Shown here one piece after another: positions 14,154-54,599 of a DNA stretch of 64,000 bases. The notes beneath the pieces are model-generated. The model worked only from the letters and a program-made list of their open reading frames with translations, had not been told where the DNA came from and did no database searches. The position numbers and the translations under genes were made by a program. The stretch covers positions 51,528 to 115,527 of the IMG/VR virus record IMGVR_UViG_3300031998_000026. One strand, 5' to 3'. The first letter of the stretch is position 1; the number at the start of each line of letters is the position of its first letter. The stretch comes from a virus. Its lineage: Duplodnaviria > Heunggongvirae > Uroviricota > Caudoviricetes.

Positions 14154-14410
14154 GGCTGAGGAGGGACGTCCTTGAGGCCAAGCGCATGCGCATCCTGGCG
14201 TACGTGGTCGAGTACGAAAGGCCGTGGGCGCCGAGCGTCGGAGACGTGAGCCGTGGCTGCGGCATCCCGTCGAGGTCGACGGCTGCCGGGCACCTCAAGG
14301 CGCTCAGGGAGATGGGCCTCGTCGACTGGGACGACGGGAAGAGCAGGACGCTGCACGCGACCGAGGAGGGCATCGAGGCCGTCGGCAGGTGGAGGCAGGC
14401 GGGCCTTTAA
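14150..14410 (+). CDS. Winged-HTH regulator (LexA N-terminal-like)
   Basis: MRLRRDVLEAKRMRILAYVVEY...GHLKALREMGLV. Confidence 0.45.
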   Translation: MRLRRDVLEAKRMRILAYVVEYERPWAPSVGDVSRGCGIPSRSTAAGHLKALREMGLVDWDDGKSRTLHATEEGIEAVGRWRQAGL

Positions 14411-14478
14411 CTAGCGACAAGACAGATTGGGTGAGAGGGCGTCTTGCGGGGCGCCCTCGTGTTTTTAGGGGGTACAGA

Positions 14479-15192
14479 ATGCTCATGTTAGACAACGAGG
14501 TATCGGCGGTCATCTCATCGTGCCAGGTCGAGACGGAAAATCCGTGGGACGGGGGAGCATACGCGACGCTCGACGGATCGTCCCTGACGCTCAAATCGCC
14601 GATTGAGACGCTCAGGGTCGACTTCTGGCGCACGACAAGCTGGAAGCAGCGCATGGAGGCACTCTCGAGGCTGTTCTACGTCAACGACTACGAGGCCAAG
14701 GACGAGCCGACCGAGGTGATCATCCACGGCCCAGCGGTCGTCGCGTACTTCGCCGACGGGAAGAGGACGGTCGCCACGTGCAAGGGAGGCGACAGGTTCA
14801 GGCACGCCATGGGCGTCGTCATATGCGCGTTCAAGAGGGTCTGCGGCAAGAGGGAGCGCGTCGACGAGTGGGAGGACGTGCTCGACGCCGTGTGCCGCCT
14901 GTCACCCGAGCAGATGCGCACGCTGTCCAGGACGCTCTCCGTGGCCGCTGACATGCGCGACGTAATTGGCACGCAGGCGAGCTGGAACGGCGTGCTGTTC
15001 GGCCTCTCCGAGCGTGCCCCGAGGACAGCCAAGGCACTCAAGGGCTCGAGGGCAACCGACGACGGGAAGGTGGTCACCGTGTCCCTGCGCAAGGGCGCGA
15101 GCGTGTCGGGAGGGCAGGTGCGGGCTGTCAGGCGGGCAGTACGCAAGGTGTTCGGCGAGCGCGAGGTCAGGTTCGAGGGCCGCACGCGGTGA
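14479..15192 (+). CDS. Hypothetical protein
   Basis: 237 aa; preceded by the TAACTAGCGACA motif and a terminator hairpin. Confidence 0.45.
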   Translation: MLMLDNEVSAVISSCQVETENPWDGGAYATLDGSSLTLKSPIETLRVDFWRTTSWKQRMEALSRLFYVNDYEAKDEPTEVIIHGPAVVAYFADGKRTVATCKGGDRFRHAMGVVICAFKRVCGKRERVDEWEDVLDAVCRLSPEQMRTLSRTLSVAADMRDVIGTQASWNGVLFGLSERAPRTAKALKGSRATDDGKVVTVSLRKGASVSGGQVRAVRRAVRKVFGEREVRFEGRTR

Positions 15193-15662
15193 TCGAGATG
15201 TCAAGGCTCCAAGGCCTGTCAGTCGACAAGGCCGAGCTGTTCGGAAAGCCCAACGTGGGCTGCGAGTACACGGGTTACGAGTCAGGGGCGTATCGCGTGC
15301 TTGACGGCGCACGCTGCGTCGTATGCGGGTCGTACCACCCACTCAACGCACACCACGTATGTCCCCGGTCGGTGCGACACGTGTTCGTGCTCGGGGGACG
15401 CGAGCTAAGGTCGCCCCTCATGTGCCTGTGCGGGTCTGGCACGCAGGGTTGCCATGGGATGCTGCATGCCGGCAGGTTCGCGGTCAGGTGGGAGTGGGAC
15501 TCGGACGAGTCCATGGAGGCATGGTGGTCGGGCGAGCTGCTCGACCGCCACGGCCCGCACTCCGACGAGCTTTACCGATACGGAAGGTATCTGATAACCG
15601 ACCGCATGCGCGGCTTCGACATGACGGTTAGGGGGAACCCCTTTGGACGACGAGACGGTTGA
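15189..15662 (+). CDS. Putative HNH-like Cys/His nuclease
   Basis: VVCGSYHPLNAHHVCPRS ... CLCGSGTQGCHGMLH resembles a His-Me finger with Zn ligands. Confidence 0.35.
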   Translation: MIEMSRLQGLSVDKAELFGKPNVGCEYTGYESGAYRVLDGARCVVCGSYHPLNAHHVCPRSVRHVFVLGGRELRSPLMCLCGSGTQGCHGMLHAGRFAVRWEWDSDESMEAWWSGELLDRHGPHSDELYRYGRYLITDRMRGFDMTVRGNPFGRRDG

Positions 15663-15669
15663 GCGTGCG

Positions 15670-15807
15670 GTGAGGTACGCGCATGACACGGGATACGACG
15701 AGGGCTACGAGTGCGGATACCAGGACGGCTACGACGTGGGCTACGAGGACGGCGTCGCCTACGGATACGAGAAGGGCATCAGGGAGGATGAGGAAACCAA
15801 AATTTGA
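15670..15807 (+). CDS. Small acidic Gly-Tyr repeat peptide (45 aa)
   Basis: GTG start; VRYAHDTGYDEGYECGYQDGYDVGYEDGVAYGYEKGIREDEETKI; high GC3; not in the ORF track (under 60 aa). Confidence 0.35.
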   Translation: MRYAHDTGYDEGYECGYQDGYDVGYEDGVAYGYEKGIREDEETKI

Positions 15808-16444
15808 CCTTACTGGCATGAGGTTTGGAAGACTGACCGTAATTAGCTATAAGGGGCGGCAGTACTGGAACTGTATGTGTGACTGTGGCAACAGCGTAGC
15901 TGTGCGAGCAAACAACCTGAAGATGGGTACCGCAAAATCCTGTGGATGCTATCACAGAGATAGAGTAAGAGAAACATCAACAAAACATGGTGAGCATAAT
16001 AGACCTTTGTATCACGTATGGCAGTCGATGAAACAACGCTGTGGCAATAAGAATAGCCATGTTTATCAGTATTACGGTGGCAGGGGTATTAGCGTATGCC
16101 ATGAGTGGACTGAGTATATACCGTTTCGAAATTGGGCTTTGGCAAACGGCTACGCGCGTGGTCTTACTCTTGATCGTATTGATACAGATGGTAACTATGA
16201 GCCGTCAAACTGCAGATGGGTAACAATGTCTGTACAGAACTCAAATAAGCGCCACTACGAAAGGCCGTCTCTTTACAAACCTGTTGATGCAATAGGCGAT
16301 GATGGTCTTGTGTCACATTTTCCAAGCATAAAGAGCGCTGCAGAGTCTATCGGAGGAAACGTCAATTCGAATAAGACGCGCATACACAAGGCTCTTCGAG
16401 GGGAGATAAACAAGGCATTCGGCATGAGGTGGGAATATGCGTAA
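15788..16444 (+). CDS. HNH/NUMOD-type homing-endonuclease-like protein (paralog 2 of 3)
   Basis: MRKPKFDLTGMRFGRLTVISYKGRQYWNCMCDCGNS..., YQYYGGRGISVCHEW, LDRIDTDGNYEPSNCRW, C-terminal FPSIKSAAESIGG. Confidence 0.6.
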   Translation: MRKPKFDLTGMRFGRLTVISYKGRQYWNCMCDCGNSVAVRANNLKMGTAKSCGCYHRDRVRETSTKHGEHNRPLYHVWQSMKQRCGNKNSHVYQYYGGRGISVCHEWTEYIPFRNWALANGYARGLTLDRIDTDGNYEPSNCRWVTMSVQNSNKRHYERPSLYKPVDAIGDDGLVSHFPSIKSAAESIGGNVNSNKTRIHKALRGEINKAFGMRWEYA

Positions 16445-18023
16445 GCTCACCTTTATCTCGCTCTTCTCCGGCATAGAGGCTGCGAGCCTCGCGTTCGAGC
16501 CGCTCGGATGGGAGCCGGTGGCCTTCTGCGAGGTCGACGAATTTGCAAGTTCTATCTTGGCGAACAGGTGGCCCGACGTGCCGAACCTCGGGTCGATATG
16601 CGACGTGGATTGGAGTGAGTACCATGGAGCAGCTGACGTTTGCATTGGAGGATTTCCGTGCCAAAGCTACAGCATTGCCGGACTCCGCAAGGGACTGGCT
16701 GACCCTAGAGGTGAGCTCATGCTCGAGTTTCTCAGAGCTTGCAGGGAGGTCGACCCCGAGTGGGTCATCGCGGAGAACGTCCCAGGCCTTCTTTCCTCTC
16801 ACCAAGGAAGGGATTTCCAGACCTTCCTCGACGCGGTGGCTATCCTATGGCCTCGGGGGGGCTGCTGTTGGAGGGTTCTGGACGCGCAATGGTTCGGACT
16901 CGCCCAGCGGAGGCGCCGTCTGTTCGTTGTCGTCAACACTCGAGACTGGAGACGTGCCGCAGCGGTACTATCTGAGCCCGAAGGCGTGCTCTGGGATCTT
17001 GCGCCGCAGCAGGAAAAGAGGAAAGCCCTTGCCTCCGGTCCTGCAGGAGACGCTGGAGAGGGTGGCGGCGGAGGAGTGACGTCGTTCAAATGGTGGCAGG
17101 GAGCCAACGCGAGGTCGGTCGCCGCATACGATGACGGGACCACGTCCACGCTCACCAACTCCGACAGCCACCAGGCCGCCGTAATGTACCCTTCCGACAA
17201 GATGCTGTGCATGGCGAGCGGGCAGGCGCACGCCGAGATAGGCGAGGACGTCAGCCCGACGATGTCGGCGAGGCAGTTCAAGGACCCACCGATCGTCATT
17301 GACCGCGCCGCCTACAACCAGGGCGCGAACGCGCAGTACCCCCCCACATAGAGCAGACCGAGCTGATGGACACCCTGGTGGCGAGGGGTCCGCACGCGAT
17401 TGCGTACTCTCCAACGGACAGGAGATAGTCGGCGCGCTGTGCGTGAGGGACTTCAAGGCGGTGGGGAGCCAGTACGTGCAGGAAGGAAAGGTCATATGCC
17501 AGAGGAAGCGTACGTCCTGAAGGTTCGCATGGGAAGCGACACGTGGGTAAAGCCCGACGGCACCGTTGGCACCGCAGGCAAGGGGGCGCTCATAGAGAGG
17601 GAGGTCACGTTCACGTTGGCTACGAGACAGGACCAGACGCTGTTCCACCCAAGTGGCGGCGGATACGTGGTGAGAAGGCTCACGCCGACCGAGACAGAGA
17701 GGCTGCAGGGAATGCCTGACGGCTACACCGACCTGACTGGCTGCGACGTCAAGGCGGTGACGGACAAGGTGGCCGAGTCGCTCGGATACGACGAGAGGCA
17801 GAAGGCGAAGCTCAGGAGAAACGTCCAGAGGTGGTCGAACGAGTGCCCTGACGGCCCGAGGTACCGGTGCACGGGAAACAGCTTCGCGGTGCCGGTGGTC
17901 GGGTGGATCGGCGCGCGCCTGCAGATGGTGCAGGAAATCATAGACGAGACGGAGGGGGCCGACGAGGCCCCCGACTCATGTAGCGAACGGGATTCATTCG
18001 ATTGGATGCAAGATGCCAAGTAA
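16437..18023 (+). pseudogene. DNA (cytosine-5) methyltransferase interrupted by two compensating frameshifts
   Basis: Motif I FSGIEAASLA, motif IV GGFPCQSYSIAG and ENV in 16437-17351; the TRD-like segment ALCVRDFKAVG lies in the +1 frame (17352-17520); motifs IX/X RRLTPTETERLQGMPDGYTD and CTGNSFAVPV are back in the original frame to 18023; frame breaks at C7 tract 17338-17344 and near GGAAGGAAAGG around 17470. Confidence 0.65.
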
Positions 18024-25239: not shown

Positions 25240-25463
25240 GCACAGGCTTAATCGTTGCGGTCGTGACGCTTGTCATCGTGGCCGCGATATACATGGCCTA
25301 TACGATGGGCGAGATATCGGAGATGCGCCGAGCATTGGAGCGTATCGAGCGCAGGCAGAAGCTGAGCGACATACCCACGGAAAGGCGGCCAGACATAGAG
25401 GTGCTGCCGTATGAGTCAGTCACCCCACGCATAAATGCGGGGGCTTGCAATAGCCCCGACTGA
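25236..25463 (+). CDS. Small membrane protein with C-terminus replaced by the IscB-element insertion
   Basis: TM helix LIVAVVTLVIVAAIYMAY; the ORF reads into the element left end at ...EVLPYE|SVTPRINAG. Confidence 0.4.
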   Translation: MSTGLIVAVVTLVIVAAIYMAYTMGEISEMRRALERIERRQKLSDIPTERRPDIEVLPYESVTPRINAGACNSPD

Positions 25464-25647
25464 CCAGCCTGAGTGCTTCGGGCACTACGTTGTCCGCGTC
25501 ATGGCACCCCGAGATGCCTCCTCAGTCTCGGGCTCTGCCGCCCGTCATTAAACAGCCCGCAGGGGTGTGGGCAGTGTGGCGGGCACGACAAGCGCGGACA
25601 ACATTGGCGAGAGGAACATTACCGCCCTTCTGGGCGAGGAGGTATTT

Positions 25648-25650: not shown

Positions 25651-26955
<1,305 letters not shown>

Positions 26956-33155: not shown

Positions 33156-33561
33156 ACGGCCGCTGCTGTTCGGCATGTCCAACGGCGGCGAGTTCGAGCC
33201 GGTCTGCGAGATATCCGATACGTCCCCTTTGTCTAGCGACACGGATGACGGGCCGTACTACGACCCCAGCGTCTTCGACGAGCTCTCGGCCACGGTCGAG
33301 GTCGGCCTCGAGGAGTACGGCGACGCGCTCGCCAAGCTGGGCACGGTGTTCCACGCCACAGGCAGTCAGATACAGCTCATGTTCGATCGCATCGTCCGCG
33401 CGCCGAGGTTCTGGTACATATGGCAGTACAAGTCGCACCCGAAGGGCAGGGGCAGGCGTCGCAGAAGGCCGTCCTGGATGAGGGTGAAGACGGTGCTGCA
33501 CGACGTGGAGGTGGAGTCGAGCGGAGACATCGCGACGTTCAGGGCGGTGATGCCAAGATGA
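33136..33561 (+). CDS. Hypothetical protein
   Basis: 141 aa. Confidence 0.4.
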   Translation: MPEDEVRRPLLFGMSNGGEFEPVCEISDTSPLSSDTDDGPYYDPSVFDELSATVEVGLEEYGDALAKLGTVFHATGSQIQLMFDRIVRAPRFWYIWQYKSHPKGRGRRRRRPSWMRVKTVLHDVEVESSGDIATFRAVMPR

Positions 33562-35890: not shown

Positions 35891-35932
35891 TTTTAAGGCG
35901 TCCAACGTCTTGATAATAACGGATGTGATGCA

Positions 35933-37033
35933 ATGCAAGACTTGAAGATATACGCCAAGAACCTCGAGCGGGCGGCTCGGGAGCAGATAGACACGCTCGC
36001 GAGCCTGCCCGCCTTCGAGGGGGCGAAGATAAGGATTATGCCCGACGCGCACGCCGGAGCGGGATGCGTCATAGGGTTCACCGCCGACCTCGGCGACAAG
36101 GTGGTCGCGAACCTGGTGGGGGTAGACATCGGCTGCGGGATGCTCACGGTCAAGCTGGACGGGCGCGTGGACTTCGAGCGTCTCGACAAGGTGATCCGCA
36201 AGGTCGTGCCGAACGGCTTCGGAGTGCACGGCAGGCCGACGTGCGACGTGGCGTCCCTCGGCCTCAGGTGCTTCGACAGCCTCAAGAAGGTGGAGCACCT
36301 CGACAGGTCGATGGGGACACTCGGCGGAGGGAACCACTTCGTCGCTGTCGACGAGGACGCCGATGGCAACCAATACCTCATCATCCACACGGGCTCGCGC
36401 AACCTCGGGCTGCAGGTGGCAAACATCTACCAACGGCTCGGCGAGGAGACGTGCGACGCCGACGTGCCGAGGGACCTCAAGTGGCTTGACGGACAGGATG
36501 CCGATGACTACATGCACGACATGAGGATATGCCAGAGGTGGGCGTGGGAGAACCGCGAGGCCATAGCGAAGGCCATCCTCGTCGGAATCAGGTCGGATGC
36601 AGATGACGAGTTCCAGACCGTCCACAACTACATCGGAGACGACAACGTCATACGAAAGGGAGCCATATCCGCAAAGGGCGGCGAGCGCGTGCTCATACCG
36701 CTCAACATGCGTGACGGCTGCCTAGTCTGCACGGGGCTTGGCAACGTTGACTGGAACGAGTCGGCCCCGCACGGAGCAGGGCGCACCATGAGTCGCAGGA
36801 AAGCCAAGGAGACGCTCGATGTCGAGGACTTCAAGGCCCAGATGCAGGGCGTGTATTCCACGACGATATGCGAGGCGACGCTTGACGAGGCGCCGGACGC
36901 GTACAAGCCCGCACGGGACATCATCGACGCAATAGACGGCGTGACCGTCACCGTCGACGAGCACCTGCGGGAGGTCTACAACTTCAAGAGCACCGACGAG
37001 TCAGGCTGGCGAAGGAGGAAGAAACGCTCTTGA
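35933..37033 (+). CDS. rtcB: RtcB-family RNA 3'-phosphate/5'-OH ligase
   Basis: MPDAHAGAGCVIGF, GTLGGGNHF, HGAGR motifs. Confidence 0.8.
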   Translation: MQDLKIYAKNLERAAREQIDTLASLPAFEGAKIRIMPDAHAGAGCVIGFTADLGDKVVANLVGVDIGCGMLTVKLDGRVDFERLDKVIRKVVPNGFGVHGRPTCDVASLGLRCFDSLKKVEHLDRSMGTLGGGNHFVAVDEDADGNQYLIIHTGSRNLGLQVANIYQRLGEETCDADVPRDLKWLDGQDADDYMHDMRICQRWAWENREAIAKAILVGIRSDADDEFQTVHNYIGDDNVIRKGAISAKGGERVLIPLNMRDGCLVCTGLGNVDWNESAPHGAGRTMSRRKAKETLDVEDFKAQMQGVYSTTICEATLDEAPDAYKPARDIIDAIDGVTVTVDEHLREVYNFKSTDESGWRRRKKRS

Positions 37034-37086
37034 CATAGCGACACCATCGGGCGGTCTTCGGGCCGCCCGTTTCGATTGGGGGATGC

Positions 37087-37323: not shown

Positions 37324-37385
37324 GCACTATAGCTAGCAACATCATAGGGCGGCCTTCGGGCCACCGCTTTTTCTAAGGAGGGACA

Positions 37386-38504
37386 ATGAATCCGAATCGC
37401 AAGATGGCGACGATGAGGAAGGTGGACGCGATTACGCCCATCGACGGCGCAGACAGGATAGAGTGCGCGCACATCGGTGGATGGACGTGCGTCGTGGGCA
37501 AGGGGGACTTCGGACCCGGCGACCTCTGCGTGTACTACGAGGTCGACTCATTTTTGCCCACATCGGACCCGAGGTACGCGCAGTTCGCCGAGCGTGGCGA
37601 GAAGGTCATGACCATAAACGGCAACCCAACGAGAGGCCACGTGCTCAGGACAATCAAGCTCAGGGGCCAGATAAGCCAGGGCCTGCTGATGAGGCCACGG
37701 GACGTGCTGCCAGAGTCCGTTCCCGAGCATGCCTATCGGCTCATGTACGAGCGCAGGGCGAGGCTCGACGGCATATGCGGCGTGCGCGAGTACCACCCCG
37801 ACCAGAACTCACTTGCCGCCGGGTTCATAGGGAAGTACGACCCATACGTGGCACCCAGGACGGGATGCGAGCGCATCCAGAACATAGACCAGGACGTGTT
37901 CGACCTAATCAAGCGGTGCGTCTACTTCACGAGCGTGAAGGTGGACGGCACGAGCATAACGCTTGTCAACGACTCCCGACACGGCCGCATAAGGGCGTTC
38001 TCGCACAACAACGAGTTCGACGTGGGCGAGGGCCAGGGCAAGCTGGTCATGGAGACTGCAGCGCGGCAATGTCTCGACGTGTTCCTCGACGAGAACCCGG
38101 ACATAGCCATACAAGCCGAGCTATGCGGCCCAAAAATCGGGGGCAACACGCTCAGACTCAATGACTACAAGCTGTTTGTGTTCTCCATGTGGGACATGGT
38201 CGGCAGGCGATACCTGAACCCGTATCTGACGTACAGCCATGCCATAGCGAACTCGACGACTCCATGTCTCGACCTCGACCTCGACCAGTTCGACATGCCG
38301 CAGGACCTCATCGAGTGGACGAACTCCCTTCGCGGGTCGGTCACGAAGGATGCGCTCGACGAGGGGATAGTCGTGCACGTCATGGACACGGGCGACCTGT
38401 CAAAGGACGAGCAGACGATGCTTCGCAATGTGCTGGGCGAGCAGATGCAGATGAAGAGCGTCTCGGCGGCGTTCCTGCTCAAGAAGGCGAAGAAGGCCAT
38501 ATAG
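37386..38504 (+). CDS. ATP-dependent RNA ligase (covalent nucleotidyltransferase superfamily)
   Basis: Motif I KVDGTS (adenylation lysine), motif IV-like EGIVVHV; adjacent to rtcB. Confidence 0.6.
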   Translation: MNPNRKMATMRKVDAITPIDGADRIECAHIGGWTCVVGKGDFGPGDLCVYYEVDSFLPTSDPRYAQFAERGEKVMTINGNPTRGHVLRTIKLRGQISQGLLMRPRDVLPESVPEHAYRLMYERRARLDGICGVREYHPDQNSLAAGFIGKYDPYVAPRTGCERIQNIDQDVFDLIKRCVYFTSVKVDGTSITLVNDSRHGRIRAFSHNNEFDVGEGQGKLVMETAARQCLDVFLDENPDIAIQAELCGPKIGGNTLRLNDYKLFVFSMWDMVGRRYLNPYLTYSHAIANSTTPCLDLDLDQFDMPQDLIEWTNSLRGSVTKDALDEGIVVHVMDTGDLSKDEQTMLRNVLGEQMQMKSVSAAFLLKKAKKAI

Positions 38505-38586
38505 CTAACGACATTACGGCGGCCTTCGGGCCGCCGATTCTTTAAGGAGGATGGCATGAACGAGAAACGCAGCGGAGGATTGAGGG

Positions 38587-39450: not shown

Positions 39451-40472
39451 TGGGCAAAATAACCAGAAAGATACGCATCCCGACGGGATACCTGTTCACC
39501 GGGGAGTACTCCCACGGCGAGCTCGAGACTCTGTCCATAGGCGACTACGGCAAGCGGCACAACATAAAGGCCGACTTCCTCGGGTTCCACGACGACGTGG
39601 AGAAGGTAAGCAACGGCAGGACGGAGCCGCTGTCAGAGAAGTGGGTGGTCACGCTCTCGACCCAGTACGGCTGTCCGATGCGATGCGCGTTCTGCGACTG
39701 CCCCAAGGTGCCGTTCGGTGGCAACGCGACCATCGGAGACCTCAAGGCCCAGCTGTACAACGCGCTGGCGTGCTTCCCGGACGAGCATTACGCCGGCAGA
39801 CTCAACGTCCACTTCGCGCGCATGGGAGAGCCGTCGCTCAACGACTCGAACGTCATCGGCTTCTCCCAGTGGATGGCGACGCACAAGCGTGACATCAAGC
39901 ACGACACCGGGGTCTCGGTTGACGTGCTGCATCCCGTGTTCACAACGATGTGCCCGAAGAGCCTCGGACGGCAGGGGCTCAAGTCCGTGCTCGGGCAATG
40001 GTGCACCGTCAAGAACGAGACGTACGCAGGGTGCGCCGGCCTACAGCTATCGGTGAACTCCACGAGCGACGCCCAGAGGGACGAGATGTTCGGCGGGATG
40101 GCGATGTCTCTCGAGGAGATAGCGGACGTATGCTCGTTCCTGCCCGAGCCGCTCGGCAGGAAGTACTGCCTGAACTTCGCGCTCGCGGACGGGTACGAGG
40201 TCGACGTCGACCGTCTCAGGGAGCTGTTCGCCCCGACCGACTTCATGGTCAAGATCACGCCCATCCACAACAACGACGCCTGCAGGGAGTCAGGCATCGA
40301 GACGAGCCACGGCTACACGGACTCGACGTGGTACCGCAAGGCGGAGGAGGACCTCAAGTCTGTCGGCTTCGACGTGCTCGTGTTCGTCCCGTCCATGGAC
40401 GAGGAGGACGGGCTGGTGACGTGCGGCAACCTCGTGCTCTCCGGGTCTGAGGTCAGGAACGAAGTGCTTTAG
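39450..40472 (+). CDS. Radical-SAM enzyme, RlmN/Cfr-like RNA methyltransferase candidate
   Basis: CPMRCAFCDC (CxxxCxxC) and a downstream MGEP motif (ARMGEPSLN) as in RlmN; 340 aa. Confidence 0.5.
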   Translation: MGKITRKIRIPTGYLFTGEYSHGELETLSIGDYGKRHNIKADFLGFHDDVEKVSNGRTEPLSEKWVVTLSTQYGCPMRCAFCDCPKVPFGGNATIGDLKAQLYNALACFPDEHYAGRLNVHFARMGEPSLNDSNVIGFSQWMATHKRDIKHDTGVSVDVLHPVFTTMCPKSLGRQGLKSVLGQWCTVKNETYAGCAGLQLSVNSTSDAQRDEMFGGMAMSLEEIADVCSFLPEPLGRKYCLNFALADGYEVDVDRLRELFAPTDFMVKITPIHNNDACRESGIETSHGYTDSTWYRKAEEDLKSVGFDVLVFVPSMDEEDGLVTCGNLVLSGSEVRNEVL

Positions 40473-40520
40473 CTAGCGACATTTCGGCGGCCCTTCGGGG
40501 CCGCCTTGTTAGGGGGAAAC

Positions 40521-42952: not shown

Positions 42953-43326
42953 GACACTCAACGCCCGAGGAGAACGATTTCTACGAGGCATGGCTCACGA
43001 GCGAGTCCGTGCCGCTGTTCACGGAGGAGGAGCTGATGAAGGACGCACCGACGAAGAGGGAGAGGCGCGTCACCCGGAAGTGCGACTGCGGGTGCTGTAT
43101 GCTGGTGTTCGAGAAGACCGTCTGGGACGACGGCATGACTTGGTACGACGTGTCGGTGCAGGACAACCGCTACGACCATGACGCCAACGGTATCCTGAAC
43201 CGCATCAGGAACGCGCTCAAGGTGCTGTTCGGCAAGACTGTGTCTTGGAACGACGTGTTCTTTGAGAACCCCGAGGACTTCGACGAGCTTCTGTGGGAGC
43301 TGGACGAGCTGCGTGAGTGGTCTTAG
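42949..43326 (+). CDS. Hypothetical protein
   Basis: 125 aa. Confidence 0.4.
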   Translation: MRHSTPEENDFYEAWLTSESVPLFTEEELMKDAPTKRERRVTRKCDCGCCMLVFEKTVWDDGMTWYDVSVQDNRYDHDANGILNRIRNALKVLFGKTVSWNDVFFENPEDFDELLWELDELREWS

Positions 43327-43432
43327 CTAGCGACATGAGGGCGGCAGGGGAATTATGGCAAGGCCGTAGCCATAACTACACGTTATGGTACACTTGTGCG
43401 TACGGTAGAACACACGTACGTCAGGAGGCAGG

Positions 43433-43946: not shown

Positions 43947-44019
43947 GGGGATGTAGCTCAGTTGGAAGAGCGCCGGACTGTCTCTCCGGAGGTCGTGGGA
44001 TCGAGGCCCATCATCCTCG
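43947..44019 (+). tRNA. tRNA-Asp (GTC); CCA encoded at 44020-44022
   Basis: Hand-folded: acceptor GGGGATG/CATCCTC, D arm GCTC/GAGC, anticodon stem CCGGA/TCCGG with loop CTGTCTC, T arm GTGGG/CCCAT. Confidence 0.6.
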
Positions 44020-44023
44020 CCAT

Positions 44024-44097
44024 TGGGGCGTAGCTCAGTCGGTATGAGCAGGGGCCTGTTAAGCCTCGTGTCGCTGGTTCGATCCCAGCCGTCCCAG
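44024..44097 (+). tRNA. tRNA-Asn (GTT); CCA encoded
   Basis: Acceptor TGGGGCG/CGTCCCA, anticodon loop CTGTTAA, T arm GCTGG-TTCGATC-CCAGC. Confidence 0.65.
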
Positions 44098-44101
44098 CCA
44101 T

Positions 44102-44173
44102 CGCGGAGTACAGTAGCGGTCACTGGCCGGATTCATGCTCCGGTGCACGTGGGTTCGAATCCCACCTCCGCCA
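44102..44173 (+). tRNA. tRNA-Met (CAT), elongator-type; CCA encoded
   Basis: Anticodon stem CCGGA/TCCGG with loop TTCATGC; T arm GTGGG-TTCGAAT-CCCAC; no GGG/CCC initiator stem signature. Confidence 0.6.
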
Positions 44174-44264
44174 CCAGACACATCCCGCCCCCTGAGGCGG
44201 TGGCCGTTGCGCGGGCCGGAAATCAGCGCCCTCTTGCGGAGTCAGGGGAACCCGCATGCACAAT

Positions 44265-44337
44265 GGGTCGTTAGCTCAGCTGGGAGAGCAGTTGGCTCTT
44301 AACCATCAGGTCCTGGGTTCGAGTCCCAGACGACCCA
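44265..44337 (+). tRNA. tRNA-Lys (CTT); CCA encoded
   Basis: Acceptor GGGTCGT/ACGACCC, anticodon loop CTCTTAA, T arm CTGGG-TTCGAGT-CCCAG. Confidence 0.65.
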
Positions 44338-44341
44338 CCAT

Positions 44342-44413
44342 ACTCCGTTAGCTCATCGGGTAGAGCAGTGGGCTTTTAACCCTCAGAGCAGAGTTCGAGC
44401 CTCTGGCGGAGTA
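44342..44413 (+). tRNA. tRNA-Lys (TTT); CCA encoded
   Basis: Acceptor ACTCCGT/GCGGAGT, anticodon loop CTTTTAA, T arm CAGAG-TTCGAGC-CTCTG. Confidence 0.65.
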
Positions 44414-44424
44414 CCAGGCAATAC

Positions 44425-44498
44425 GGAGTCCGTAGCACAACGGTTTAGTGCGCTGGGTTGTGGCCCCGGATACGAAGGTTCGACTCCTTTCGGACTCC
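44425..44498 (+). tRNA. tRNA-His (GTG) with G-1
   Basis: G-1 opposite C73, acceptor GAGTCCG/CGGACTC, anticodon loop TTGTGGC, T arm GAAGG-TTCGACT-CCTTT. Confidence 0.6.
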
Positions 44499-44505
44499 CA
44501 TCCAT

Positions 44506-44579
44506 TTCCCCGTAGTTCAATCCGGCAGAACGCCTGACTCTGGTTCAGGAGGTACCTTGTTCGACTCAAGGCGGGGAAG
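44506..44579 (+). tRNA. tRNA-Gln (CTG); CCA encoded
   Basis: Acceptor TTCCCCG/CGGGGAA, anticodon stem CCTGA/TCAGG with loop CTCTGGT, T arm CCTTG-TTCGACT-CAAGG. Confidence 0.65.
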
Positions 44580-44768
44580 CCAGAGAAATACCGCGCGATC
44601 GCACTAGTACCTGTCCGGAGGGGAAACTGCGACTGGGGCCAGCCACACTCTGAGCTCGCGCGTCCATACAGGAGGTCGTAGTAAAGGTGAATACGACGCG
44701 TTGCAACAGGGGGGACGCTTCCGCAACACGTAGATGCAAGGTTCGAGTCCTTGCCCTCCCAACCCAAC

Positions 44769-44840
44769 AGGCTCTTGGTGTCAAAGGAAGCACGCTGGTC
44801 TCCAAAACCAGAGGAGGGGGATCGATACCTCCAGGGCCTG
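44769..44840 (+). tRNA. tRNA-Trp (CCA); CCA encoded
   Basis: Acceptor AGGCTCT/AGGGCCT, anticodon stem CTGGT/ACCAG with loop CTCCAAA, T arm GGGGG-ATCGATA-CCTCC. Confidence 0.55.
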
Positions 44841-44908
44841 CCATAGAAGTCACTTGAGGGGCGTGGCCTTCGCGGCTGCGTCCCTCTTCCGTACGAAGGA
44901 AGGAGTCA

Positions 44909-46021: not shown

Positions 46022-46335
46022 CGTATCCCACTGAAATGGAAAAGTTCGAGGCCCTCGTCGACATGGTGTGCAGCGTCGCAGGCTGCGAAAGGTGGAAGGC
46101 CGAGTTGGCCGTCGCCACGTACGTCGCACGCGAGATGCGGCTTCGGTGCATGGAGCTGTCCGGCAGGGAAGTGCCGCCAAGCCTGCGAGGCAACGATTTC
46201 AATAAGATTCTGTACGATGAAGTACCCTTTACTAGCGACGTTTTGATCGAGGAGGTCGAGGAGGAATGGAAGAGGGCAAATTCACGGTGGTGGACGGTGG
46301 CAAGGGTGATCGAGGGCCGGCGATCCAAGGCATGA
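46018..46335 (+). CDS. Hypothetical protein
   Basis: 105 aa. Confidence 0.4.
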   Translation: MTYPTEMEKFEALVDMVCSVAGCERWKAELAVATYVAREMRLRCMELSGREVPPSLRGNDFNKILYDEVPFTSDVLIEEVEEEWKRANSRWWTVARVIEGRRSKA

Positions 46336-46771: not shown

Positions 46772-47035
46772 TTGCTGTTCGAGTGCACCGAGGGCTTCGA
46801 GACGCGCGAGTTCGGTTTCCCGCAACAGGTTGACAGGGGCACGTGCTGGTACAGGGTGAGGGACGTGATAGTCCCCGGCGGATACGAGTGCTGCCACATG
46901 CTCGAGGTCGTGGACGGGCAGTACACGGCAAACTACGTCAGGATCAGGCTGGAGCGACTGTCCGAGAACTTCAGGCAGATGCCCATGAGCGGCTCGGCGC
47001 TGCCAGTGCCGGACTCCCAGTCCCATGCATATTAG
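46772..47035 (+). CDS. Hypothetical Cys-rich protein (start uncertain)
   Basis: Protein-like frame CTEGFETREFGFPQQVDRGTCWYRV...CCHMLEVVDGQYTANYVRI; the only in-frame start candidate is a TTG. Confidence 0.3.
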   Translation: MLFECTEGFETREFGFPQQVDRGTCWYRVRDVIVPGGYECCHMLEVVDGQYTANYVRIRLERLSENFRQMPMSGSALPVPDSQSHAY

Positions 47036-47050
47036 GAAGGGCGGCATTTT

Positions 47051-47257
47051 ATGTCGAACAACGGCGGCGCATCGGGCGGGATAGGGTTCTTGGGCTTGCT
47101 CTGCATCCTGTTCGTCGGCCTCAAGCTCGCGAATATCATAGACTGGGAGTGGTGGGCGGTCCTCATGCCGCTCTGGGCGCCTGTCGCGCTCGTCCTGCTC
47201 CTGCTGCTCGTTCTGATGGCGTACAACTCGTGGGACGACTGGAGGTGGCGGCATTGA
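47051..47257 (+). CDS. Small membrane protein (two TM helices), holin-like topology
   Basis: GFLGLLCILFVGLKLANII...WWAVLMPLWAPVALVLLLLLVLMAY. Confidence 0.35.
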   Translation: MSNNGGASGGIGFLGLLCILFVGLKLANIIDWEWWAVLMPLWAPVALVLLLLLVLMAYNSWDDWRWRH

Positions 47258-47490
47258 CGGAGAAGGAGCAAGTCGAAAGGTTCCGAAAACAGACCGAGAA
47301 CGGCCTCGTGGCGTGCGCGAAGTGGCTCGAGGACAACGCATGGCTCCTCTCGCACGAGATTGCGGGCGGATGCAGGTCGTGGGCGGTGTCGTTCGAGGCC
47401 GGGGAGGACGGGATCTTCCCCGAGATCAAGATTTCGGTCAACAAGATAGACAAAGGCATCATCGAGGCATACGAAGGTGCCTCTAACTAG
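47254..47490 (+). CDS. Hypothetical protein
   Basis: 78 aa, TTG start. Confidence 0.35.
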   Translation: MTEKEQVERFRKQTENGLVACAKWLEDNAWLLSHEIAGGCRSWAVSFEAGEDGIFPEIKISVNKIDKGIIEAYEGASN

Positions 47491-47527
47491 CGACATAAGG
47501 CCCGAAAAGTCATATCAAACGCAGAAA

Positions 47528-47570
47528 ACGCCCCTCCGCACCCATTCTCGGGTCGCGGAGGGGCGTTTTT
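47528..47570 (+). terminator. Rho-independent terminator ending the plus-strand arm
   Basis: CGCCCCTCCGC-N15-GCGGAGGGGCG followed by TTTTTT. Confidence 0.75.
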
Positions 47571-47602
47571 TCGTATAATTCGAGTCGGGGGAGCGATTTG
47601 CA

Positions 47603-47827
47603 ATGTATCCGGAGACGCTTGCATACAAAAACGGCTCGATAAACGATGACATGTGGCGTCTCTTGGGCAAGGATGGCCGTATCAGCGTCCCAGAGCACGT
47701 GAGAGTGCTCATAAACTATGGTAGGCTGTGCATCATGGTGAAAAACAGCCAAGAGACGGTCATCATGCCCGTTCACAAGCGCGTTTCTTGGGCGTTCATC
47801 GCCGCAATCACGTCCATTAGGGCATAA
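47603..47827 (+). CDS. AbrB/MazE/SpoVT-type swapped-hairpin DNA-binding protein
   Basis: LGKDGRISVPEHVRVLINYG. Confidence 0.45.
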   Translation: MYPETLAYKNGSINDDMWRLLGKDGRISVPEHVRVLINYGRLCIMVKNSQETVIMPVHKRVSWAFIAAITSIRA

Positions 47828-47950: not shown

Positions 47951-49099
47951 TTACGCAAACCTACGCTTGCCGTTTGATTCCTGCTTCGTAGGGCGCTCCA
48001 CCTCGACGGCTTCGACGCCCTCCACAGGCATGAGTTCGGGATAGTTCGCCATCCCTACGTTCAGTATGTTTATCGCCGCGTTCACGTCGCGGTCGATGAC
48101 GGCCCCGCAGTCTGGGCACTCGTAAGTGCGCTCGGAGAGCGGCATGTCGCGTACGCACCCGCAGTTTGAGCACGTCTTACTGCTCGGGTACCAGCGGTCT
48201 ATCCTGCCGACCCTCGCCTTGTACTCGAACTGGCTCGCCATCGTCGCCAACGACGCATCGGCTATCGACTTCGCCAGCTTGTGGTTCGAGCGCATGCCCT
48301 TGACGTTGAGATCCTCCAAGAACACGACGCCGTACCTGCGCACGACGTCCGTCGTGGCCTTGTGGATGTAGTCCGCCCTCATGCATGCCGTGCGATACTG
48401 GAACTTGGCGAGCCTGTCCTTCGCCTTGCGCCAGTTCTTGGAACCCTTCTTCTTGCGCGACAGATCCCGCTGCAGGTGCCTCATACGCCTCTCGCGCCTC
48501 CGATACCAGCGAGGATTCTGGACCACCGTACCGTCCGAGAGCGCCATGAGTACGTGGCAACCGAGGTCGATGCCCACGGCGGCTTGGCTTTCGCCCGCCG
48601 TGTCCGGCACCTCGCACGAGATGGCCGCGAACCACATGTTCGCCCTCTTGGATACGGTCACGTTGTATATCTTGGTGCAGTCTTGGTATCTCAGCGGCTC
48701 TGCCATCTTCAGTGTGAGTCCCTTGGGCAACCTGAGGTACCTGCCTTCCACCCTGACGGCCGAGCCGTCGATGCGGAATGAGTCTCTAACGCCCTTCTTG
48801 TGGAACCTCGGGTGCTTCGTGTTGCCCCTGAAGAACGACTTGAACCCCTTGTCGAGATCCTGTATCGCCGCCTCTCCTATCCACTTGGAGTACTCGTACA
48901 TCCACGGGAACTCCGCCTTCTTGCGGGCGTTGAACTTCTTCTTTATCGAATAGTAGTTGTGTCTGACGCCGTTGTCGTAGTCCTCGTTCCACATGCCGAG
49001 GCAGAGGTTGTATGCCGTCCGAGAGAACCCGCAGCAACCCCTCAGATACGACTCCTGCACGTTGTTGGGATATATTCGCGTCTTGAACGTCCGATTCAT
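47951..49099 (-). CDS. tnpB: TnpB RNA-guided nuclease (RuvC plus Zn finger)
   Basis: N-terminus MNRTFKTRIYPN; RuvC-I AVGIDLG; RuvC-II VVFLEDLNVKGM; Zn finger CSNCGCV...CPDCG; RuvC-III DRDVNAAINI. Confidence 0.85.
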   Translation of the reverse strand: MNRTFKTRIYPNNVQESYLRGCCGFSRTAYNLCLGMWNEDYDNGVRHNYYSIKKKFNARKKAEFPWMYEYSKWIGEAAIQDLDKGFKSFFRGNTKHPRFHKKGVRDSFRIDGSAVRVEGRYLRLPKGLTLKMAEPLRYQDCTKIYNVTVSKRANMWFAAISCEVPDTAGESQAAVGIDLGCHVLMALSDGTVVQNPRWYRRRERRMRHLQRDLSRKKKGSKNWRKAKDRLAKFQYRTACMRADYIHKATTDVVRRYGVVFLEDLNVKGMRSNHKLAKSIADASLATMASQFEYKARVGRIDRWYPSSKTCSNCGCVRDMPLSERTYECPDCGAVIDRDVNAAINILNVGMANYPELMPVEGVEAVEVERPTKQESNGKRRFA

Positions 49100-49326
49100 C
49101 GTTGCTCCTCGAGCAACTCGTCGTCGAGCCTCCATTCTATTGTGTCCCTCACCTTCTCGAGCCTCAGGTATTCGGACACTGGCCTGTCGTACACGAACCG
49201 CACGTCGTAGTCCGAATCCTCGCTCGCAAAGCCCCAGCAGCGGCTCCCGGACTCGATTGCGAGCACCAGGTTGACGTTCTTCTCCCTCTCGACGGACTCG
49301 AGCTCACGGATTATTGTCTCACGCAT
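49096..49326 (-). CDS. Minimal nucleotidyltransferase (MNT-like) fragment
   Basis: LVLAIESGSRCWGFASEDSDYDVRFVY is a Pol-beta-type GS...DxD motif; only 76 aa; stop abuts the tnpB start. Confidence 0.45.
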   Translation of the reverse strand: MRETIIRELESVEREKNVNLVLAIESGSRCWGFASEDSDYDVRFVYDRPVSEYLRLEKVRDTIEWRLDDELLEEQR

Positions 49327-53049: not shown

Positions 53050-53541
53050 CTATGCCACCTCCGTCGTGACCCTCTTCCTCGGCAGCCTCCTCCCGTCCAG
53101 GTAGAGCCAGTCCTCGAGCTCGGCGATGCCGTCTGCCTTCTCCCACACGGTGCCGAAGTCGTCGTGCTCTGCACGGTACGGCTCGCCCCCGTCGCACCAT
53201 ATCGAGAGCACCGGTATGCCCTCCTGCACGCTCTGCGCCACGTGCGCGTCCCATATCAGCCCGCTTATGGGGACGAGGCAGTTCTCGAACCTGCCCTCCT
53301 CCTCCATGGGGACGTTGGCGTTCCTGTAGAAGCGTCCCTCGTAGTAGTAGACCCAACGGGGGAAGCGCTCGTATCGCTTGCCACCCCTCGGCCCCTTGGT
53401 CTCGGATATTCTGGTGCCCCACTCGTACGTGTAGCGGGTCTGCAGGACCTTCGGCCTGCTCCCGTCCATCATGAGGAACGTACGCCGCCTGTTGCTGTGC
53501 CTCTTCGGCGTGTACGGAAGCCTCGGTACCTTGTATCCCAT
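53050..53541 (-). CDS. Hypothetical protein
   Basis: 163 aa. Confidence 0.4.
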   Translation of the reverse strand: MGYKVPRLPYTPKRHSNRRRTFLMMDGSRPKVLQTRYTYEWGTRISETKGPRGGKRYERFPRWVYYYEGRFYRNANVPMEEEGRFENCLVPISGLIWDAHVAQSVQEGIPVLSIWCDGGEPYRAEHDDFGTVWEKADGIAELEDWLYLDGRRLPRKRVTTEVA

Positions 53542-53627
53542 GCTGGTCTCCTCTCTCCTCGTCAAATGCCCAGCAGAAAGGGCGCCCCTTCCGAGGTGCC
53601 CTTCCGTGACGGGTATTCGTCGTGTCG

Positions 53628-54023
53628 CTAGTCCTGCAACCCGAAGCTCAGGTAGCGTCCCATGCGATCCTCGTCCACCACGTCCATCGAGGCGTACCCT
53701 GCGAGCGTGTCGCACTGCTCGTCCGTGAGCACGTGGCCCGACGCCGCCGCCGACTCTCGCATCTGTGCCCTTGTGAAGGTGAAGGTGTAGGTCTTGTCGG
53801 TCTCGCGCTCCTCGTCGTACGACTGCAGGGACAGGTGGCAGTCTCCGTCGGGCCCCCAGTCCTCGTCGCTGACCGAGTCGTTAAGCGGTGATACGATTTC
53901 GTCCACGGGCAGTATGTCGTAGTCGCCATTGCCGTCGTAGTGCCAAAGCTCAACACCCTGCTTGAGCAGGTGGCGAGGCATCTTGTCCAGCACGTCCATC
54001 AGTTCCAGCCAAGTCATTGCCAT
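53628..54023 (-). CDS. Hypothetical acidic protein
   Basis: 131 aa. Confidence 0.4.
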   Translation of the reverse strand: MAMTWLELMDVLDKMPRHLLKQGVELWHYDGNGDYDILPVDEIVSPLNDSVSDEDWGPDGDCHLSLQSYDEERETDKTYTFTFTRAQMRESAAASGHVLTDEQCDTLAGYASMDVVDEDRMGRYLSFGLQD

Positions 54024-54037
54024 GTCCTTCTCCTCTC

Positions 54038-54304
54038 CTAGACCGCGTACTCCTTGACGAACGCCTTGAGCGGCATGTACTCGTCGGCGTCCCCGTAGTT
54101 GTGCTCCTCGTCCAGGCGGACGAGGAAGTCCGTCTTGTTCATGCACTTGTACGACTGCCTGCACTCGTACAGCTTCTTCTTGATTTGCCTTCCGGCCTTG
54201 TCCATGCCCTCCCAGCAGCGCCTCGTTGGTTTGGCGTCGTCCGTGAACCTGGACACCCTCTTGTACGTGCCGCAGTCGATGGGTCGCACTATCGTTACTC
54301 TCAT
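54038..54304 (-). CDS. Hypothetical protein
   Basis: 88 aa; AAGGAGG RBS. Confidence 0.45.
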   Translation of the reverse strand: MRVTIVRPIDCGTYKRVSRFTDDAKPTRRCWEGMDKAGRQIKKKLYECRQSYKCMNKTDFLVRLDEEHNYGDADEYMPLKAFVKEYAV

Positions 54305-54365
54305 TGCTCCTCCTTAAAACGAAGGCACCCGCAGGTGCCCATCCAAACCTCTGTCGTGTCGCTAG

Positions 54366-54599
54366 CTAGGCCAACGGGTATTGTCCAGGCTCCACCTCCT
54401 TGTATGGGTGCAACTCGATGTTCTCGAGCAGCCAGTCTGTCTGCAGGTGGTCCTTGAGTGCGACGCAGTGATCGGCGAAGAAGTCCTCGTCACCATAGAG
54501 CCGCTTCTCCAGCTTCTCGATTGCCTCCTCCATCGTGTCGGCTTCTACCTCGTACGTCCTCCAGAGTGCCATCTGCGTGTCGATTGCGAACCTTGCCAT
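54366..54599 (-). CDS. Hypothetical protein
   Basis: 77 aa. Confidence 0.4.
   Translation of the reverse strand: MARFAIDTQMALWRTYEVEADTMEEAIEKLEKRLYGDEDFFADHCVALKDHLQTDWLLENIELHPYKEVEPGQYPLA

Follow-up and report, generated by a model that had tools for sequence, protein, structure and literature searches.

A lineage-specific box at gene ends in a temperate-type phage: a candidate signal of portable conditional terminator cassettes

We analyzed 64 kb of DNA (~60% G+C) from a virus of the Caudoviricetes, covering positions 51,528 to 115,527 of the IMG/VR record IMGVR_UViG_3300031998_000026 and hereafter called the window, as well as gene calls for the adjoining 2.2 kb; within part of the window, genes were called crudely from codon usage. 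The window corresponds to bases 51541-115540 of a metagenomic contig of 117,767 bp (ENA ERZ27257204 k141_4222975). A short sequence with the 13-mer form TAGCTAGCGACAT, referred to as the box, recurs at gene ends in the window and is a real, selected and lineage-specific signal. On the sequence evidence, it is a lineage-specific, orientation-dependent cis-element located in the intercistronic regions of non-structural operons. Our tentative reading, which we hold to be possible though short of probable, is that the box forms a portable cassette with a terminator and a Shine-Dalgarno (SD) sequence, in which the box would recruit a phage factor that controls read-through.

With up to two mismatches allowed, the 13-mer was matched 7 times, as compared to 0.93 matches expected, and none of 100 shuffles reached 7. 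The sequence TAGCGACA was found exactly 8 times, as compared to 1.65 expected, and exact copies of the 10-mer core CTAGCGACAY 6 times, where a first-order Markov model predicts 0.30 (P ~8e-7). The tetranucleotide CTAG is strongly avoided, four- to five-fold (46 observed versus 170-226 expected); roughly a quarter of the CTAGs in the window are located in boxes. When one mismatch was allowed, the 10-mer was at chance level (15 matches versus 9.5 expected), so that degenerate copies need positional or orthologous support. Such copies were therefore counted only if situated at a gene junction or kept at the orthologous place in a relative, which gave a total of ten junction sites and one intragenic site (33230).

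The junction sites start at 14408, 37032, 37330, 38502, 40470, 43324, 46229 and 47484 on the plus strand and at 54368 and 53634 on the minus strand (Table 1). All are co-oriented with the local coding strand (10/10, P ~0.001), as is the intragenic site, with plus-strand sites below 47.5 kb and minus-strand sites at 53.6 and 54.4 kb; both the GC skew and the coding strand change at ~48 kb, with genes on the plus strand from 1.8 to 47.5 kb and on the minus strand from 48 to 64 kb. No box with at most one mismatch was found on the plus strand before 14.4 kb, nor in the cI/cro region (684-2783). An earlier note on this DNA had described the motif at gene ends on both strands and proposed a comparison with a shuffled background, which the count indeed exceeds; the pattern is real and non-random, but several of the coordinates were off by 1-13 nt. 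Those of 14408 and 38502 were kept, and corrections were made from 37019 to 37032, from 37321 (which is the true stop codon) to 37330, and to 40470, 43324, 47484, 54368-54356 and 53634-53622. Two weak versions, at 9782 (CTAGCAGAC followed by a hairpin) and 58656, were indistinguishable from chance matches.

Contigs from relatives were reached via homologues of the RNA ligase and of a 167-aa protein. Six boxes, all on the plus strand, were identified in L007 (9.4 kb; ligase 84% identical) and five in L018 (12.5 kb; ligase 97% identical), at junctions orthologous to those of the window; L008/L029 is an L007-type fragment, and the box-bearing genomes are thus three (the window, L007 and L018). 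In 14 pairwise comparisons of orthologous sites among these three, the 13-mer was 92% identical and the core 94%, whereas identity was only 73% in the upstream and 78% in the downstream flank of 30 nt. Several of the pairs had flanks of ~50% identity around an intact box. The box is common to sites with unrelated spacers and hairpins, and it is thus maintained in its own right and not merely as part of a repeat. Boxes have also been gained or lost between relatives, as exemplified by the box at 7951 in L007, which has no counterpart at that place in the window.

The box was not found in the distant relatives L009 (67%), L010-L015 (61%, a phage of an Atopobiaceae metagenome-assembled genome, MAG), L016/L017, in which the ligase is similar and the genome otherwise different, and L078 (70%, 167-aa protein). 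Isolated remnants were seen among those checked (L009, L010, L016 and L078), namely ATAACGACAC with a hairpin after the L016 ligase gene and TAACGACTG at the orthologous junction in L078. The presence in related phages that the earlier note had called for is accordingly seen in close relatives, but only there. A scan of JGI metagenomes with TAGCTAGCGACAY-N(1-6)-GGCGG returned 55 loci, of which only L029 (= L008) was related, the others being single chance matches in unrelated DNA, and a scan of GTDB (185,579 genomes) with box and hairpin gave 4 chance matches, which shows that the cassette is not a host or prophage element in the representative genomes. A nucleotide search with the 36-48 kb region against 50,697 phage records gave zero matches, as did IMG/VR scans with three proteins and one box-hairpin pattern; in tblastn searches against the phage records, all relatives of the ligase and clamp proteins were below 35% identity. 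The homologues of the radical-SAM protein (70-73%, L003-L005) are located in unrelated contexts without the box.

The phages of the L010 lineage carry a conserved element of their own, TTTATCAAGMGAC / TTTATCAAG(A/C)GAC(GACGA), which sits after terminator hairpins and before the SD (L010 7360, 13493 and 16793; L011-L015). Since this lineage, too, has its own box by its terminators, lineage-specific boxes beside terminators may be a general trait of this phage group. In L009 (18.3 kb), the 13-mer GGGAATCGAGGTG recurs, and the 10-nt core GAATCGAGGT is present 8 times.

In an alignment of all sites from the window, L007 and L018, the constrained part of the box was the core CTAGCGACAY. The TAG or TAA at the 5' end of the 13-mer serves in most cases as the upstream gene's stop codon, and this triplet becomes GGA, TGT, TTA, TAT or TCA where the internal TAG provides the stop or the box is translated. 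The box contains stop codons in two frames, and its sole stop-free frame (..CT-AGC-GAC-A..) encodes Ser-Asp. It is followed on the 3' side by 2-4 mostly A/T nucleotides and then GG. The stop codon of the upstream gene, previously thought to be contained in every copy, lies inside the motif at 7 of the 10 sites, but overlaps it by only 2 nt at 37032, precedes it by 7 nt at 37330 and is missing at 46229. Within the intergenic region, the box is the first element on the 5' side and abuts the end of the upstream gene.

The earlier note had also placed a hairpin of the TTCG-loop type, followed by a T-run, within ~10 nt of the motif at each site, which holds for 37032, 37330, 38502 and 40470 but not elsewhere. 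The hairpins of these four compact cassettes (GGCGGyC-UUCG-GrCCGCC) are located 2-4 nt past the box and have GC stems of 8-10 bp, UUCG-type loops, energies of -15 to -20 kcal/mol and T-rich tails, with only 15-19 nt, SD included, from hairpin to ATG; the SD is situated 15-21 nt 5' of the ATG. These features support the interpretation of the cassettes as a terminator followed by a ribosome-binding site. The four hairpins are near-identical, which indicates that the cassettes are paralogues and amount to about one independent observation. Hairpins unrelated in sequence are found 15-20 nt away at 14408, 54368 and 53634, and 45 nt away at 47484; the hairpin at 43324 has no T-run, and there is none at 46229 and 33230. 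Altogether, 8 of the 10 junction sites have a hairpin on the same strand 2-45 nt downstream. Since its distance and sequence vary from site to site, and since it is sometimes absent, the box and the hairpin are separable elements. A GC stem-loop with a T-run, as expected of an intrinsic terminator, was recognized in the hairpins at 37048, 37347, 38517, 40486, 14436, 47525 and 54340, with imperfect T-runs at 40505, 37069 and 53578; the hairpin at 43353-43375 does not qualify. In an Rfam scan of the window, only HEARO RNAs and tRNAs reached the gathering score, and no credible sub-threshold match was obtained in the 36.9-43.5 kb region.

A scan for sigma-70-like promoters identified none in the compact cassettes. 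Recognizable host-type promoters are instead situated 3' of the box and the hairpin, with TGGTACACT at 43386, which is kept as TGrTACACT in L007 and L018, and TATAAT at 47574; a promoter-like TTATCAT follows the box at 7951 in L007, and a sister promoter, TGCTACACT, is located at 35027, at the head of the RtcB block. The downstream location of these promoters indicates that the box belongs to the end of the upstream unit and not to the promoter. Ten genes at 40.5-43.3 kb are preceded by four serial boxed terminators without an intervening host-type promoter, which leaves read-through or initiation at the box as the only routes to their expression.

Hairpins without a box are also present in the window. 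A second cassette family, located on the minus strand in the leftward early operon of ORFans (60159-60210, 60457-60525, 60973-61039 and 63393-63475), consists of a hairpin GGGGCGyC...GrCGCCCC without a T-run, followed by (G/A)CGTCTTAGARRGGAC and ATG. On the plus strand, two near-identical terminator-like hairpins in tandem (31472-31491 and 31522-31543; GAGGGGCrTATAT..GCCCCTC + CTTTC), each followed by TTAGG(G/A)AAG, are situated 5' of a Band_7/SPFH gene.

Table 1. Boxes, their associated signals and the cI-, cro- and Xis-like genes in the window. Sites are named in the text by the first nucleotide of the box on its own strand.
Feature	Position	Strand	Remarks
Box TAACTAGCGACAA	14408..14420	+	Its TAA is the stop of a 106-aa LexA-type winged helix-turn-helix (wHTH) gene, 14090-14410
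GC hairpin AGGGCGTCTTGCGGGGCGCCCT + TGTTTTT	14436..14466	+	15 nt past the 14408 box; then SD and ATG at 14479
Intragenic copy TGTCTAGCGACAC	33230..33242	+	Newly added; stop-free frame Ser-Ser-Asp-Thr; no hairpin; core kept in L018
Compact cassette, 3' of rtcB; box GACATAGCGACAC	37032..37085	+	2-nt overlap with TGA stop; hairpin 37048-37069 (UUCG loop), TTTCGATT, SD, ATG 37087
Compact cassette, 5' of RNA ligase gene; box TAGCTAGCAACAT	37330..37385	+	True stop 7 nt upstream; hairpin 37347-37367, T-run, SD, ATG 37386; orthologues L007 470, L018 5365
Compact cassette, 3' of RNA ligase gene; box TAGCTAACGACAT	38502..38555	+	TAG is the ligase stop; hairpin 38517-38536, SD
Compact cassette, 3' of radical-SAM gene; perfect box TAGCTAGCGACAT	40470..40520	+	TAG is the stop; hairpin 40486-40505, TTGTTA, SD, ATG 40521
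Perfect box	43324..43336	+	TAG is the stop of 42916-43326; then variable 16 nt
Hairpin past the 43324 box	43353-43375	+	No T-run
Extended -10 promoter-like TGGTACACT	43386-43394	+	Followed by gene 43433
Box TTACTAGCGACGT	46229..46241	+	Newly added; no hairpin; inside or at the end of an overlapping upstream ORF; 24 nt to ATG 46266; orthologues L007 7498, L018 12308
Box TAACTAGCGACAT	47484..47496	+	Internal TAG is the stop of 46843-47490; final junction of the plus-strand gene array, ahead of small ORF 47603-47827
Strong A-tract/hairpin/T-tract terminator	47525..47571	+	45 nt past the 47484 box; -43.5 kcal/mol for the whole 82-nt folded segment
TATAAT	47574-47579	+	After the 47525 terminator
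Box TAGCTAGCGACAC	54356..54368	-	TAG is the stop of 54366-54599; hairpin 54340-54323, then TTCGTTTT, SD, ATG
Box GGACTAGCGACAC	53622..53634	-	Internal TAG is the stop; hairpin 53603-53578, 18 nt on, weak T-run
cI-like repressor gene (HTH_3 + Peptidase_S24)	968-1726	-	Divergent from the cro-like gene
cro-like gene	1775-1972		Divergent from the cI-like gene
Xis-like gene	5404-5601

We compared the gene modules of the window with those of L007 and L018 by pairwise blastn and by inspection of the junction sequences. In L018, the radical-SAM gene directly follows the ligase gene, and both the 38502 cassette and the HNH/NUMOD gene are absent. The cassette on the 5' side of this HNH insert in the window (38502) is a copy of the 37330 cassette that includes the first codons of the ligase gene, and the last 19 nt of the ligase gene recur at the 3' end of the insert, so that a direct repeat flanks it (38478-38496 and 39422-39440, 1 mismatch). 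The retained ligase start (ATGAAC...) forms a 12-codon mini-ORF, 38556-38594, which overlaps the start of the HNH gene at 38587. L007 lacks the block with the HNH and radical-SAM genes (38.5-40.5 kb in the window) and has in its place a single chimeric cassette (L007 1668), composed of the left flank of 38502 and the hairpin and tail of 40470, which is by its sequence the signature of cassette-to-cassette recombination. The first gene past the 40470 cassette differs from that of the window in both L007 and L018.

Another block, 35036-37085 (HNH_3, RtcB and the 37032 cassette), corresponds to genes for non-coding RNAs and Ro60/TROVE in L018 (2902-5120). The swap spans the region from the shared promoter TGCTACACT to the ATG of a 78-aa gene, and its right breakpoint coincides with the end of the 37032 cassette. 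The conserved promoter-like sequence TTCTCGCGCACGTTGCGAACGCGTGTGCTACACT heads both arrangements, HNH_3 and RtcB in the window or tRNA-like/Y-RNA-like sequences and Ro60/TROVE in the relative with the 97% identical ligase, and RtcB and Ro60/TROVE are alternative RNA-repair or RNA-quality-control modules in one slot. The suggestion that the cassettes are boundaries of module exchange is supported directly, though to a limited extent, by the chimera, by the HNH and RtcB swaps and by the variable gene content, but no enrichment could be shown over junctions without a box, which have a similar number of indels and replacements (e.g., at 34.97, 41.7, 42.06, 42.65 and 45.8 kb). No test gave support to a nuclease or recombinase recognition site, which had been put forward as another option. 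The phage's own RecE/RecT-type functions could recombine repeats of 40-55 bp, and homologous or RecET-type recombination of such repeats is sufficient to account for the chimera, with no need for a nuclease or recombinase of its own.

The favoured reading of the cassette is that of a conditional terminator. Once the ribosome quits the upstream gene, the box would be exposed by the RNA polymerase or in the nascent RNA, and a phage-encoded factor would read it either as RNA or as non-template-strand DNA and thereby set whether the polymerase gets past the next terminator. Accessory modules would thus be insulated early and read through later, and as a by-product the repeats of 40-55 bp would serve as substrates for homologous or RecET-type recombination, by which modules may be gained, lost and swapped. 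In lambdoid phages, the cI/cro-type architecture with long early operons relies on antitermination, and the nut sites of lambda need freedom from translating ribosomes; the stops in two frames and the position at the upstream stop would probably keep the box largely ribosome-free in the same manner. Co-evolution with a phage factor would be consistent with the limitation of the box to close relatives and its degeneracy at 70% divergence. Both the binding of such a factor to the box and the antitermination effect are inferred. The more specific proposal that the box and hairpin constitute a self-contained, factor-switchable terminator carried by mobile accessory genes, in which a phage protein of no recognizable family would read the 10-nt signal, as RNA or as non-template DNA, and make the neighbouring terminator transparent, so that a new antitermination system of Coriobacteriia phages would be combined with shuffling like that of promoter-early stem-loop (PeSL) cassettes, is rather doubtful.

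Several observations weigh against the conditional terminator. Neither an antiterminator or NusG paralogue nor a sigma factor or RNA polymerase was recognized with Pfam (117 ORFs, best 25 of 52 families) or PHROGs (50 proteins), and an extra Pfam run on 30 selected proteins returned no usable cognate factor. In particular, there was no Pfam or PHROGs match for N-, Q- or NusG-like genes; N-like proteins are short and poorly conserved, so that a missing match says little. Most early proteins are ORFans, and 51.5 kb of the source contig lies outside the analysed DNA. Processive antiterminators usually need one or two loading sites, as compared to ten here, and there is no box near the start of either early operon, the first plus-strand site being at 14.4 kb. 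The distance from box to hairpin is anywhere between 2 and 45 nt, and at two sites the hairpin is missing, which excludes a simple steric mechanism. Among ~20 GC hairpins on the transcribed strands, as counted from the intergenic listing, 8 have a box upstream and ~12 do not. Finally, the last plus-strand box (47484) is located ahead of the terminal terminator, and no evident purpose would be served by read-through there.

We weighed this reading against several others. The box could be a promoter for a phage sigma-like factor or a phage RNA polymerase, with transcription starting 2-4 nt downstream, where the sequence is G-rich. For the compact cassettes, this would put the start within the 5' arm of the hairpin, so that the terminator would stop incoming but not box-initiated transcripts, and the expression of the genes behind the four serial terminators would be solved. 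The co-orientation with genes, the position 5' of the SD and ATG, and the pattern of box, 2-4 A/T-rich nucleotides and GG at almost all sites would fit a promoter, the last of these by a resemblance to T7-type promoters. At 46229 and at 7498 in L007, moreover, the box is 21-24 nt from the ATG with just the SD in between, and the cassette has travelled 5' of the HNH gene that was inserted, like the promoters of PeSLs (PMC2839356). However, the box has no match to a sigma-70 promoter or to the actinobacterial TANNNT -10 element, so that identity with a host sigma-70 promoter was rejected; an arrangement known from some PeSLs, with GCGACA as a -35 element and a spacer that contains the hairpin, was rejected as well, since the distance to the nearest T-rich hexamer is 24-26 nt. 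Single-subunit T7-like RNA polymerases have ~800-900 aa, whereas ORFs in the 64 kb window reach 504 aa at most, with none larger among the genes called in the next 2.2 kb, and no gene for such a polymerase was found there. Sigma factor and RNA polymerase families are absent among the listed Pfam (best 25 of 52) and PHROG matches. Transcripts initiated at 47484, 54368, 14408 and 53634 would be ended by a complete terminator hairpin 15-45 nt on, and host-type promoters come after the box at 43324 and 47484. We consider a promoter unlikely. The preference for the conditional terminator over it is a weak one, which is based on the complete terminators that follow the box at no fewer than four sites (at least 4), the host-type promoters that follow it at other sites and the lack of a visible polymerase or sigma factor.

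A role as a stoperator-like DNA site, where a bound phage protein would block the elongating RNA polymerase in an orientation-dependent manner and thereby silence lytic or accessory operons in the lysogen, seems distinctly unlikely. The asymmetric 13-bp site with ~10 direction-locked copies in short intergenic spaces fits the description of stoperators (PMC9283540), the phage looks temperate, the sequence is lineage-restricted, and a LexA-type wHTH gene ends in a box. Yet repressors of the L5 type use the site also as an operator, and the immunity and early-promoter region (684-2783) has no copy. The repressor encoded there is of the classical HTH_3 + S24 CI type, for which palindromic operators are expected; a roadblock immediately ahead of a terminator would be redundant, and the sites cluster at 37-47.5 kb rather than being spread over the operons. 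It is very unlikely that the box has no function of its own and is the slowest-decaying part of a young terminator-cassette repeat, or the target of a phage HNH endonuclease or recombinase, with the repeat spread by duplication, gene conversion or recombination associated with homing endonucleases. The paralogy of the four cassettes, the copying of 37330 into 38502 along with ligase codons, the 19-nt repeat around the HNH insert, the chimera in L007 and the presence of RecE/RecT-like proteins and several HNH genes would all agree with this. But six sites have the box alone in common, neither spacer nor hairpin, the box is kept across genomes as the flanks fall to ~50%, its orientation and gene-end position are strict, many indels are found at junctions without it, and no tyrosine or serine recombinase is among the Pfam matches listed (best 25 of 52 families). 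We assign the lowest probability to a signal for RNA processing or stability, in which the single-stranded box, ahead of a very stable hairpin, would be the target of an endoribonuclease or RNA-binding protein, whose action would uncouple the cistrons and leave the downstream mRNA with a protective 5' hairpin. UUCG-type tetraloops argue for hairpins that act as RNA, and the box was unpaired in every predicted fold inspected and is strand-specific; against this, no Rfam family was matched, the spacing from box to hairpin is inconsistent, and two sites have no hairpin.

Further candidates were rejected. Inspection revealed no complementarity by which the box could pair with the hairpin arms or the SD as an antiterminator. 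An end of a REP/RAYT or IS200/IS605 element is contradicted by hairpins that differ from site to site, and TnpB and IscB but no Y1_Tnp are among the Pfam families listed. A link of the box to a TnpB or IscB guide or target-adjacent motif (TAM) was dismissed, as the 5' flanks of the HEARO RNAs have no similarity to it.

The phage looks like a large, temperate-type phage. Its rightward operon extends over ~46 kb, and the recognized genes for recombination and replication encode RusA, RecE/YqaJ, RecT, a single-stranded DNA-binding protein (SSB), a DnaC/IstB-like ATPase, a beta clamp and a dUTPase. Other recognized genes encode RtcB, an Rnl-type RNA ligase, a radical-SAM enzyme, several HNH/NUMOD proteins, TnpB and an IscB-like RRXRR/HNH protein with a HEARO RNA, and there are nine tRNA genes. 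Since the nearest named relative of the ligase is from an Atopobiaceae MAG, the host is likely a member of the Coriobacteriia, probably of the gut or rumen Atopobiaceae. In the immunity-type region (684-2783), AATTAAATTAC(A/G)GT boxes are repeated at ~1745 and ~1973 and GTACTTTGT/AGTACTTAG repeats are located at ~800-850; the region continues into a non-coding stretch of 811 nt that holds tRNA-Arg(CCT) at 2613-2688. The other eight tRNA genes form an array at 43947-44843 on the plus strand (Asp, Asn, Met, Lys x2, His, Gln and Trp), the content of which varies among the window, L007, L018 and L078. A C5 cytosine methyltransferase is represented by two ORFs on the plus strand, 16437-17351 for the N-terminal catalytic part and 17400-18023 for a C-terminal fragment.

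A HEARO RNA of the IscB omega-RNA family (25415-25622, plus strand, 175.9 bits) is located upstream of a 462-aa IscB-like ORF with RRXRR and HNH domains (25567-26955). A second HEARO RNA (11167-11376, plus strand, 141.9 bits) is followed only by a 123-aa ORF (11504-11875) and may therefore have decayed. The sequence GACATAGAG is situated ahead of both RNAs, and a related copy is found in L010 at ~5.5-7.1 kb. The TnpB gene (OrfB_IS605/Cas12f-like; 47951-49135, minus strand) is without a Y1 transposase and lies beside a small ORF (49096-49326, minus strand) for RlaP, a member of an RNA-repair nucleotidyltransferase family, at the place where two convergent gene arrays meet. A complete element with Y1_Tnp and TnpB is present in the L010 lineage at another location. 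Four plus-strand ORFs of low G+C content (9920-10771, 15683-16444, 38587-39450 and 35453-35932), with many repeats of the CxCxCG type and with NUMOD/HNH_3 and HTH features, resemble free-standing homing-endonuclease genes between conserved genes, and another one is located within the tRNA array of L007 (5434-6006).

To our knowledge, gene regulation is essentially uncharacterised in phages of the Atopobiaceae and other Coriobacteriia, which belong to the Actinomycetota of gut and rumen. As a short, specific and orientation-dependent signal at operon boundaries, the box can be mutated, used as bait for a binding factor, and employed as a guide to transcription units when related metagenomic phages are annotated. 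Should it control read-through, the cassette would be a compact, portable conditional terminator and also a part for synthetic biology. If its role is mainly in recombination, the principle of PeSLs, with regulatory cassettes as vehicles of module exchange, would apply not only to T4-like coliphages but also to temperate phages with Gram-positive hosts; if none of these is true, the box would be an ordinary lineage-specific repeat.

Among known intergenic regulatory and recombination cassettes of phages, the one described here is most like the PeSLs in the way that it would work. The nutR site of lambda consists of boxA and boxB between the cro stop and tR1, and RAT/terminator pairs and the ops sites of RfaH are other antitermination signals adjacent to their sites of action. 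The position of the box parallels that of nutR, as a linear conserved element on the transcribed strand between a stop codon and a terminator, in a phage of the cI/cro type with long early operons. It differs in having no sequence similarity and no boxA-like sequence, with only TAGCG in common with ops (GGCGGTAGCGTG), in that the hairpin is the terminator itself and varies between sites, and in being present in ten copies rather than two.

The PeSLs of T4-type phages are short conserved intergenic cassettes, in which the upstream stop is followed by a GC stem-loop that acts as terminator or attenuator and then by SD and start (Arbiol et al. 2010, PMC2839356; Comeau et al. 2014, PMC4122927), and their signature is the replacement of an ORF between two cassettes by one chimeric cassette in a close relative (PMC2839356). 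The cassettes described here share with them the composite of stop, stem-loop, SD and start in ~50-100 bp, the association with accessory or ORFan genes, a chimeric cassette in a close relative and a lineage-specific consensus. However, PeSLs have a sigma-70 or Mot-type promoter with -35 and -10 elements, for which the promoter scan found no counterpart; the conserved element is instead a box of 10-13 nt 5' of the hairpin, without -35/-10 geometry, in a temperate-type phage of an actinobacterium-type Gram-positive host. Lacking the promoter, which is the defining feature, the cassette is not a PeSL.

In the Cluster A mycobacteriophages (L5), stoperators are asymmetric 13-bp sites found in many copies in short intergenic spaces, with a direction-correlated orientation (PMC9283540). 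Copy number, intergenic place, an orientation tied to transcription and a lineage-specific sequence are common to both, whereas the box has no copy at the early promoter/operator, is unrelated in sequence and is usually followed by a terminator hairpin, and the repressor is of the CI/S24 type rather than a monomeric protein with HTH and stoperator domains. The SAS/ESAS of Cluster K phages are asymmetric 13-bp repeats with one orientation in non-structural genes, sometimes with the upstream stop and partly with an inverted repeat, which are absent from host genomes and of which the function is not known (PMC3203893). The box shares these traits, and it is likewise lineage-specific. SAS are located 3-7 bp from the start, hold the SD core and have the inverted repeat upstream, whereas the box is situated at the upstream stop and ends 21 to ~100 nt before the ATG, with a separate SD and with the hairpin downstream.

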